Below are positions 25,877 to 28,961 of a stretch of DNA of 64,000 bases, piece by piece. The stretch is from Octopus vulgaris (Eukaryota). The notes beneath the pieces are model-generated. The model did not search any database. It saw only the letters and a list, made by a program, of their open reading frames with translations, and was not told the DNA's origin. The stretch lies in the NCBI GenBank assembly GCA_951406725.2, contig OX597843.1, positions 8,122,001-8,186,000 of the forward strand, read 5' to 3'. Numbering within the stretch: position 1 is the first letter of the stretch; every line of letters starts with the position of its first letter. Made by a program: the position numbers and the translations under genes.

Positions 25877-26051
25877 GTTTAAATATTTGTTGTGCAAGAT
25901 TTTTTATGTGAAGTCGTGTGTTGAAACAGATATTGTTATATTTCGGAATGGTCATATTGCCAGTTTAGCCAATAAAAACACACGCACTATATATTTGGTG
26001 TTATTTTGCTTCAGTGATATTTATTTTTTACATTAATCTTAATCTTATTTC

Positions 26052-26096
26052 GGCCAAAGTTCTTTCGTCACACTCCTGTGACCGCATCAGTGGTCC
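26052..26096 (-). ncRNA. Variant minimal type I hammerhead-like motif in the PLE terminal region
   Basis: Minus strand reads GGACCA CTGATGC G GTCAC-aggagt-GTGAC GAAA GAAC TT TGGCC. The core has C in place of A9 and stem I is imperfect. Confidence 0.65.
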
Positions 26097-26606
26097 TTTG
26101 TTTTCTTCTCACTTACTTGTGTCTCTCCTTACTAACCGTCAGCCATTTTGTATTTCTATTGTATGTCTTCATTTGCGCATGCTTATATCTCTATGTGCGT
26201 CTATGTTTATTTAGTGTGTGGGGGGGGTGTCTGTAATATTTGTATCTTCTGGTTATATACATTCTTGTAATTTGTATTTTGTTTTTGTTGTTGTTGCTTT
26301 TGTTCTAATTTTGTTCATGTGTTTACATCCACCCATTATTATCATTACATATGCTTGTATGTATGTATAACAACAATATTAGTAATAATAATAATAAATC
26401 TAATCGAGAAAAAAAAAAAAAGAATATACATATACATATATATATATATATACATACACATACATATACATATATATATATACATATATACACACATATA
26501 TACACATATACATATACATATATATACACATATACATACACATAGATATTCATTTCTATTTCTTTAATTACCTGTGTATTTATTATGTTTGCAGGATCCA
26601 CTATTG

Positions 26607-28805
26607 TCATATGTTGTGGTGTGCGCTATTGCTCCATTCTAGTTTTCTATTCAGGCTAGGTTTATTTTCTATTATATGTGTAGCTTCTGTAATTTGTCTA
26701 ATTGTTGCATCTGTTCTATGTGTGGACAATATCTTAATCTCTATGTTATTGATTGATCCCCCGTGTTCTTGTTCGGCGTGTTGGTACAGAATCGATGAGC
26801 TTTTACCTTCCTTGAGTTGTCTCCAATGTTCATTCACCCGCTCACCAATGCTTCTTGCAGTTTCCCCTACGTATGTTACTGTCTTGTTACTGCATCGTCC
26901 CTCTATACATCTTATACTATAGACCACATTTCTGGCTTTACAGTTCGTTTGTGGGCTAAATCTACATACAGTGCAATAGTTATCCGTACAGAGAGTTCTA
27001 CTAAAAGGATAGGTTCTACCAATTATAGATCTGATAGGGTTGCCTGGCTTTTCAACAACCTTAATTCTTAGTTTAAGTTTATCTAGGGTCCTTCTAAAGC
27101 GGTACGCTAGTTCACCTCCAGGGGTGGTGTCAACGAACATGACACTCTGGTATTTATGGCTATCATACCAAGAGTTGGCCTTCCTTATTTTCTTTTTTGT
27201 CCTTTCTATAGTGTTCCATGACTTGTTCCTATAGAGTGGGCAAATCCCATTCCTATCATTACATAATATATTATCAAATTTCTTCATGGCTCCTTTGTAT
27301 ACTCTGATCCTTTCTTTATGGCTGTAACCTGAGAACTGCATGCGGTGAATGAAATACTGTATGTGTCTCTTTAATTCTGTAGGCTCGCACATGCGTGACA
27401 CATTTCTCATTATTCTGACGAGGTCTGCCATCAAAATATTGAATTTGGCATTGCCCGCAATGGCTGAGTTCCGGTGGATCAGGTATTTTGAGGCCATAGG
27501 TTTTGCATAGTATGAATGAAGGATTTGGGTTTTATTTTTCACAATTTCTAGCCAGAGTTCAGTGTCTAGTACTGGTAGTCTATGGTTGGGGTGTTTAGTG
27601 GGGTAGTCTATTGTGACCTTAATACTCTGGTGGATGGAGTTAGCTATTTGCTGGATGCTCTCCATAGTATTAGTTTCTATTACTATATCAACCGTACTCT
27701 CTTGTGGGGGTGCCTTTACTACTATATTGATATCATCAACATAGCGAGAGTACATGTTTACGAGTATGGATTTCTGCAGTAGGCATTCTTTAAGCCTTCT
27801 GTCCCACCATACCATGAAGAGGTTGGCCACATCACCAGCGATACTAACACCGATGGCTGCCCCCTCGTCCTGGGCATATATTTTATTATTAAATTTAAAT
27901 GTGTGGCCTTTTAGGGTAACTCTTATACTAGCTCCTAGTGCATGTGCGATCATTTTCTTTACCTGATGGACATTTGCGGGGCTCCGTATGGCTCTGGTCC
28001 ATCCGCGCCATCTTTCTATATGTGTCTTCCTAGCCATAGAAGTAATTGTAGGCGGTCTACCTCTTAAACATCTACTGGGGCAGAAACTACTAAGATTATG
28101 TTTATCTAAGTATTCACTATTATATGTCAGTCTAAGTAGGAGGCCCAGTTCTTCTGTGTCGACATTACAGAACTCCACCTGGCTCTCGTTGATCATCTCC
28201 ACGCACTTCTCCACTGCAAAATCTACGTCAATCGATGGGTATAGGGATACCACATCCATGCTACCTACTATACATCCTGTCAAGTCACAAGTTTTGTTAC
28301 AGTCACTGATCCTGCTTAGGAGATCTTCTGTGCTGTCACATACATCAGGTGACATCCTGATTATAGGGCGTATGATCATTGAGAGGAAGTAGGAGATTCT
28401 GTAATTGCTAGCGATATTCGCTCCACAGACTGGTCTTGTTGGTGGTCCTGCTATAGGGTCAGTAAAACCTTTATGGTCCTTGCGAAGTCCATACAGTGCC
28501 GGGATATCATTGTTCCAGGCTTGGAAATTCTTTGCAGTACGTTTCTGAGGTCCCAGAACAATTGTCCACATCATCATGTGGGCATTGAGGACCTTTTCTC
28601 TCTCCTCATGCGCCTGTACAGTTGTTACTTTTGTATTGGCGATATGAGGTTGCATTGCCTGGATGTAGTTCGGTAAGCTGTCTATTGACATCCTGCCTGA
28701 CTTATCCGTGGGAAGGCATATCACCTCTCCGTTCCTCGTGCGCTGAATGAGCTTCTGTAGGCCACATGCAGGTTTAATCCCTAGTTGTTGGGCATCTGTC
28801 TTATT
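26607..28805 (-). CDS. Penelope-like retroelement ORF (reverse transcriptase + C-terminal GIY-YIG endonuclease), 5'-truncated
   Basis: Uninterrupted frame with RT motifs [35 protein letters not shown] and LPVLD. A Cys-rich linker [10 protein letters not shown] follows, then GIY-YIG motifs [33 protein letters not shown]. The first 18 codons of the listed ORF (28806-28859) come from the inverted repeat, so the real N-terminus is missing. Confidence 0.95.
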
Positions 28806-28923
28806 CTTTGGCCGAAATAAGATTAAGATTAATGTAAAAAATAAATAACGCTGAAGCAAAATAACACCAAATATATAGTGCGTGTGTCTTTATTGGTTAA
28901 ACTGGCAATATGACCATTCCGAA

Positions 28924-28961
<38 letters not shown>

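Follow-up and report, generated by a model that had tools for sequence, protein, structure and literature searches.

Where an arm of a retrotransposon insertion ends close to the predicted cleavage site of the element's own hammerhead ribozyme, the end may record cutting of the RNA template during integration. This question is raised by the element at positions 25880..28926 of the window, the 64,000-nt stretch of Octopus vulgaris contig OX597843.1 analysed here. The initial annotation proposed that its short inverted arm had been copied from the 3' self-cleavage product and joined to the truncated ORF cDNA through a CTT microhomology.

The element and its locus

The element is a young Penelope-like retrotransposon (PLE) copy, ordinary for its kind. 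Its target flanks, recognised from sequence, are (TA)n tracts at 25835..25873 on the left and 28927..29040 on the right, at which no target-site duplication was readable. The long arm lies on the minus strand and comprises a 3' pseudo-LTR (pLTR; 25874..26380, family positions 1–509), 99.6 % identical to the tandem copy L023 and ending at the distal fixed start; a 3' UTR with (TA)n/(TATG)n and poly-T tracts (26381..26606), which alignment to the L023 unit assigned to the element; and a 5'-truncated ORF (26607..28805). Included in the pLTR is a 56-nt 'tail' carried by the long arm only (25874..25929, minus strand, family 454–509), delimited by the clusters of outer ends as the segment between two fixed outer ends. 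The inverted short arm occupies 28806..28926 on the plus strand and was placed by alignment and haplotype at family 324–444, or 327–444 if its start is the cut. Copy comparison located the junction at 28806..28808, where CT is common to ORF and pLTR, a 2-nt microhomology.

The ORF remains open for 732 aa and was assigned from motifs and relatives as a reverse transcriptase (RT, with YVDD), a Cys linker and, at the C-terminus, a GIY-YIG-type endonuclease (EN). Motifs read by eye gave a single ORF with RT followed by GIY-YIG, including VVY..YVGET, and the linker that joins RT to EN reads CTDNYCTVC (the Neptune criterion being CX2-5CxxC). The RVT_1 match to this frame was weak (E=0.0014, below cut-off), a Pfam search at 1e-3 gave no match and a PDB sequence search nothing useful; its Atlas neighbours were RT/GIY-YIG proteins (0.96–0.97). 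The new element joins the known EN+ kind of PLE and is probably of the Neptune type. The full-length frame (L023:2819-4550, family 419–2150) is absent from the window copy. Its first ATG, at family 428 (window 25955), is inside the pLTR; since the frame starts there, the tail encodes N-terminal residues. A long Asn-rich low-complexity stretch precedes the RT in L023 and recalls the N-rich inserts of Adineta Penelopes described in the sections of PMC3846280 drawn on here.

Several other repeats were observed around the locus. A 4.5-kb (AAT)n-based array occupies 18440-22935, a 264-nt repeat (96 %) flanks the element on both sides (24559-24818 and 30762-31025), and an older repeat of ~400 nt with many copies in the window lies to its right (29040-29425). 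A search within the window for an empty-site paralogue found none.

Architecture of the family

A DNA search of the genome gave 1,104 candidates, the best 40 of which were 99–100 % identical; 38 candidate loci were fetched with long flanks, two stretches being one locus. The natural tandem copy L023 was used as coordinate reference, with the pLTR at 1–509, so that a window position is 26383 minus the family position and the predicted cut is 326/327.

Most copies in the 38 fetched loci are two head-to-head arms, both of which begin from the 3' end. The outer ends fall into clusters at family 453 (149 arms) and at 503–512, and in 119 of 131 head-to-head pairs, a total in which a few loci appear twice, one arm stops near 509 and its partner near 453. 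Head-to-head arms that start at two fixed 3' points, separated by 56 nt, are the norm in this family and a known PLE pattern, and the outer ends show the optional tail at one end by which EN+ Penelope-like elements are recognised. Inverted arms are found in most of the 38 loci, with inner ends that span 50 nt to 3.4 kb, and a tandem 4.6-kb unit occurs in L023, L021 and L041. Clean junctions with a microhomology of 2–4 nt account for 95 of 136, and clean 2-nt joins outnumber every other junction class in the family (41/136).

In many insertions, including L015, L017, L018, L026 and L035, both arms end at nearly the same base, and such near-perfect palindromes reach 2.4 kb per arm. Both arms end within 10 nt of each other in 34 of 229 junctions; ends of this type bear on the choice between fold-back and two-primer models. 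Miniature copies without an ORF are also abundant (L049–L138 and the control loci). They consist of two pLTR-only arms, 200–500 nt in total, and resemble MITEs as products of the same insertion route.

The hammerhead motif

A minimal type I hammerhead motif was predicted at 26052..26096 on the minus strand from sequence, fold and family variation, with helix II at 26082-26067. Its parts are helix I (GG-A-CCA/UGGCC), the core CUGAUG-CG, helix II (GUCACA/UGUGAC), GAAA, GAAC and UU; both helices and the CUGANGA, GAAA and UH elements are present except for A9, core position 9 being C (26084). The MFE fold yields helices I and II at a stability that is not unusual (z -1.1), and an Rfam scan returned no hammerhead, its matches being microsatellite-driven miRNA ones only. 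In standard hammerhead numbering, as drawn in the part of PMC4209133 consulted, the cut comes after the second U in CUU. This numbering upholds the cut between 26057 and 26056 given in the initial annotation, and the apparent inner end of the short arm, 26059, is 3 nt 5' of it.

Of 229 distinct arms compared across the family, 195 have C at core position 9 and 26 have A, and A9 persists in an older lineage linked to 439T/445C. A9 is important for hammerhead activity and its change to C is strongly harmful; a literature search on the A9C change in hammerheads found no paper. Position H17 varies only between C and U (121 U, 106 C and 2 gaps in the 229 arms), a restriction which, though a single transition, fits retained function of the predicted ribozyme. 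No compensatory changes on both sides of a helix were found among the 229 arms; the family is too young, and the lineage changes within the hammerhead fall at unpaired positions (282, 299, 308 and 326).

The inverted arm and its junction

The 121-bp inverted copy is real: 25939-26059 and 28806-28926 are 96.7 % identical over 121 nt (E=4e-53), with four substitutions at 26017/28848, 26015/28850, 25977/28888 and 25968/28897. The long arm carries no private substitution in 2,935 sites, and all four differences belong to the short arm. Two are the lineage markers 366A and 368G; the other two, 406C with 415T, occur in no other arm examined. The outer end of the short arm is at 444, not 453. These variants place the short arm in another sub-lineage than the long arm. 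Arms discordant at 366 were found in 3 of 123 insertions (the window copy, L112 and L177), of which two end at the cut, a tiny sample; the arms of L065 are also of different lineage by other markers.

The haplotype also bears on the junction. Among arms spanning both sites, 366A goes with C at 326 in 79 of 81 and T at 366 with T in 98 of 103; the 366A/368G core has 27 exact matches, and every other arm with this core that spans 326 has C there. The T at 28808 does not come from the ORF and is probably not the base of the short arm's own lineage. Of the proposed CTT microhomology, CT (28806-28807) is supplied by the ORF and the third base is absent from it. The AAG expected in the full-length ORF at the junction was not found: all 12 other copies spanning the site read ...CAG|AATAAG, and since full-length copies read CAG the microhomology is 2 nt.

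Because C almost always immediately precedes the cut in the short-arm haplotype, the arm may truly end at the cut itself. It may then stop at 327, with a single untemplated T between it and the ORF. Alternatively it may end at 324–326 in an ordinary 2-nt microhomology, with a C>T change or a rarer haplotype accounting for the T. The long arm crosses an intact ribozyme, so a model with cut RNA needs a second RNA; judged from the lineage variants, the mismatch between the arms implies two RNA templates, which fits this need.

The junction sequence is unique in the genome (one match), which rules out an inherited junction. A productive master with a divergent 5' pLTR was likewise ruled out, since of the 27 arms that share the 366A/368G core just one has the other changes of the window copy. 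Contigs from four other sequencing data sets did not contain the junction, an outcome that neither confirms nor refutes it.

Breakpoints around the predicted cut

Inner ends were counted in seven intervals by patterns consisting of two must-mismatch bases and an anchor. Pattern matches numbered 56 (family 241–254), 132 (289–301), 147 (309–320), 148 (322–328), 279 (330–341), 111 (345–358) and 161 (374–387), and intact arms numbered 3,895 (through 320–352) and, in a second count, 4,092. In listing order, 30, 30, 70, 90, 70, 30 and 30 matches were fetched from the successive intervals, of which 30, 28, 61, 82, 59, 20 and 27 proved to be true junctions, and the others, indel or diverged copies, were dropped. 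Ten of the first 100 matches in the cut interval, 322–328, were left out as palindrome mirror matches, indel false matches identified by eye or the last listed. Ends per base were then simulated with the observed microhomology spectrum, giving 5.7, 14.6, 14.2, 29.4, 27.7, 9.2 and 20.3 for the same intervals; these figures are rough, as anchors differ in sensitivity and the 374–387 count includes diverged relatives, judged by eye.

Breakpoints are thus not uniform, as the idea of a cleavage footprint would require, and their density roughly doubles over the stretch that runs from the cut to a point 15 nt downstream, but they are frequent at every position (about 9–20 per base). Over this stretch arm ends form a plateau of ~28 per base; a single step in end density fits best at 325, closely followed by 320–326, and the left edge of the plateau fits anywhere in 320–327. 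In a one-base spike model 327 came first of 44 positions (dlnL 5.6; 328, 5.5; next, 2.7), a rank favoured by the denser sampling of the cut interval and its extra haplotype marker. The null is our own model and already weights microhomology. The spike at 327 corresponds to ~55 arms (bootstrap 37–70), or ~1.3 % of arms reaching 327. This position remained first after fold-backs were removed, and also with recurrent junctions collapsed, when dlnL fell from 5.6 to 3.5 (next, 2.7 and 2.6). Palindromes or recurrent microhomologies make up 12 of the 26 ends at 327–328. A cut RNA should halt both arms of an insertion. For arms ending at 327–328 the partner passes the cut in 5 of 24 cases versus 42/70 and 15/31 in controls, but palindromic fold-backs and a single recurrent junction make up 12 of these 24, and once they are set aside the proportion is 5/12.

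Lineage markers allowed the templates of near-cut arms to be compared. In the 60 scorable arms ending at 322–327, base 326 follows the arm's own lineage, with C in 21 of 34 A-arms versus 3 of 26 T-arms (p=1.4e-4). The own-base rates (0.62 and 0.77) fall between those expected for no cut (0.82 and 0.91) and for all arms ending at 327 (0.37 and 0.71), so that about half of the near-cut arms would have been copied from uncut RNA; the remaining half would fit ends at the predicted cut or immediately beyond it. Cut-site ends showed no clear enrichment in the older lineage linked to canonical A9 (11/26 versus 21/58 upstream). Among other long copies fetched regardless of breakpoint, only 1 of 37 ends where the window copy does (L019, family 324). 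Most genomic 5' junctions do not lie at the cut as in an R2-like system, the intact arms numbering 3,895 against a modelled excess of ~55. On these breakpoint counts the family data give a weak, position-specific hint of cleavage; they set an upper bound of a few percent on cut RNA as template, with uncut RNA the main template.

Origin of the short arm

Three explanations of the short-arm end were weighed. It may be a run-off cDNA of a hammerhead-cut RNA, copied either from the 3' product or from the 5' end that a cut left on another transcript; it would then end at 28809 (the equivalent of 26056), followed by an untemplated T and the ORF cDNA. The T at 28808 fits neither template, given C at 326 in 79 of 81 arms of the haplotype; the divergence of the arms (4/121 vs 0/2,935) is as a two-RNA model needs; and the family has its spike at 327, with a second copy, L019, ending at 324. 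Against this, the AAG prediction fails, a chance CT match plus an untemplated base is required, and a single C>T change in the diverged arm, or the T-bearing haplotype (2/81), restores a plain 2-nt join. Core position 9, moreover, is C in 195 of 229 arms, a strongly harmful change, and in a green anole PLE cleavage was not needed and no RNA ending at the cut was seen (PMC11167929). Our own estimate is that a run-off origin of this arm is unlikely; a rough weighing puts it anywhere from quite improbable to an even chance, according to the frequency with which untemplated bases are added to run-off ends. The claim that the arm was templated by the 3' cleavage product finds partial backing in the family spike and the C-linked haplotype at the predicted cut but is not proven by this single copy, because AAG is absent, the arm at face value includes bases 5' of the cut, 2-nt joins are the commonest class and arm ends are common at every position. 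The match of its inner end to the cut is more likely ordinary than proof of cleavage.

An explanation to which we give a substantial chance, somewhat short of even, is that the ribozyme had no effect: the excess at 325–341 would arise from sequence or structure (GGCC and TTAA palindromes, near-matches between an arm and its partner, a pause of the RT at helix I), and it would be by coincidence that the window copy matches. Similar single-position excesses do occur at 320, 332, 336 and 340; palindromic fold-backs at GGCC account for 7 of 10 ends at 328, and similar ones recur at 244–250; 5 of 16 ends at 327 are one recurrent microhomology junction; and the plateau reaches 15 nt beyond the cut. 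However, microhomology is already weighted in the null, 327 stays first after fold-backs are dropped or recurrent junctions collapsed, and the left edge of the plateau fits 320–327, best 325. It is improbable that the short arm is simply older than the long one, left over from a small earlier insertion after a young copy had replaced or converted its partner, which would make its end uninformative on this integration. The lineage variants together with 406C and 415T, the outer end shortened to 444 from 453 and the long arm free of private changes would agree with such a history, but the left flank holds no remnant of an older long arm, exact replacement at the junction needs a special mechanism, and the outer end may have been eroded by (TA)n slippage.

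Proposed mechanism and comparison with known systems

Overall, the reading we favour, with moderate confidence, is of two 5'-truncated head-to-head arms with two primed starts and a microhomology join, copied from a mostly uncut template, with ~1 % of arms ending at the predicted cut. Insertion would be into a (TA)n tract, with reverse transcription likely from nicks in the two target strands. Two cDNAs would be primed at fixed start points separated by 56 nt, and a short microhomology likely joined them. Most arms of the family would run through the hammerhead uncut, a small excess (~1 %) stopping at the predicted cut would record occasional cleavage, and the window copy would have been built from two RNA templates. 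This two-cDNA mechanism, derived from DNA only, competes with a self-priming fold-back model published in PMC3846280, as set out in the parts consulted. Against the proposal, a clean cut does not account for the plateau at 330–341 without trimming of the ends. A bolder version, which we hold to be speculative and on balance doubtful, is that the minimal hammerhead of this autonomous element cuts in vivo even with C9, that ~1 % of arms are run-off cDNAs (up to ~5 % if the plateau represents trimmed cut ends), and that the window copy would be a chimera of a young full RNA and the cut RNA of another sub-lineage, as from a particle with two RNAs (dimeric ribozyme, dimeric protein).

The family closely resembles EN+ PLEs as described in the covered passages of PMC8557442 and PMC3846280: one ORF with RT followed by GIY-YIG and a Cys linker before the EN, a pLTR with a hammerhead that covers the ORF start, an Asn-rich stretch in the full ORF, partial tandems, an inverted 5'-truncated copy, a tail on one end and (TA)n targets. 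The octopus tail is longer, at 56 nt versus 30–40 there. Those passages do not report breakpoint density around the ribozyme, and PMC8557442 calls the function of the PLE hammerhead unclear. The covered passages of two retrozyme papers (PMC7229834 and bioRxiv 10.64898/2026.07.22.740005) likewise contain no breakpoint analysis.

Poseidon_Ac (PAc) of the green anole shares the two RT start sites that bound the tail and the AT-rich targets (PMC11167929). There, both target strands are nicked and extended and uncut RNA is the main template, features that in octopus are inferred from DNA. The anole hammerhead needs protein and is dispensable for insertion in vitro, and no RNA with an end at the cut was seen (PMC11167929), whereas the octopus copies suggest a cut-end class of ~1 %.

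The predicted ribozyme is similar to the metazoan PLE minimal type I hammerheads treated in the consulted part of PMC4209133 in that helix II is long and helix I short, with one base extra between 9 and 10.1 and a G10.1-C11.1 pair, and its near-palindromic helix III would need dimers, with low activity expected. Those hammerheads cut weakly, as dimers, with low activity in vitro (PMC4209133). The octopus motif differs in that position 9 is mostly C and loop 3 (AGAACU) is no perfect palindrome. For ribozyme cuts visible in genomic junctions there is a precedent in R2 with its HDV-like ribozyme, where, according to the sections of PMC3774820 covered, the cut position is mirrored in genomic 5' junctions and joins use chance microhomology. 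In R2 the cut sets the 5' end of the full-length element, whereas here it would define at most a small, putative minority of ends.

A census of PLE breakpoints relative to the ribozyme cut was not found in the open-access literature searched. The single window copy alone carries little weight. The census of thousands of young arms yields an in vivo bound, by which cut RNA would serve as template for at most a few percent of arms, and if the one-base excess holds across families it would provide a genomic read-out of cleavage.
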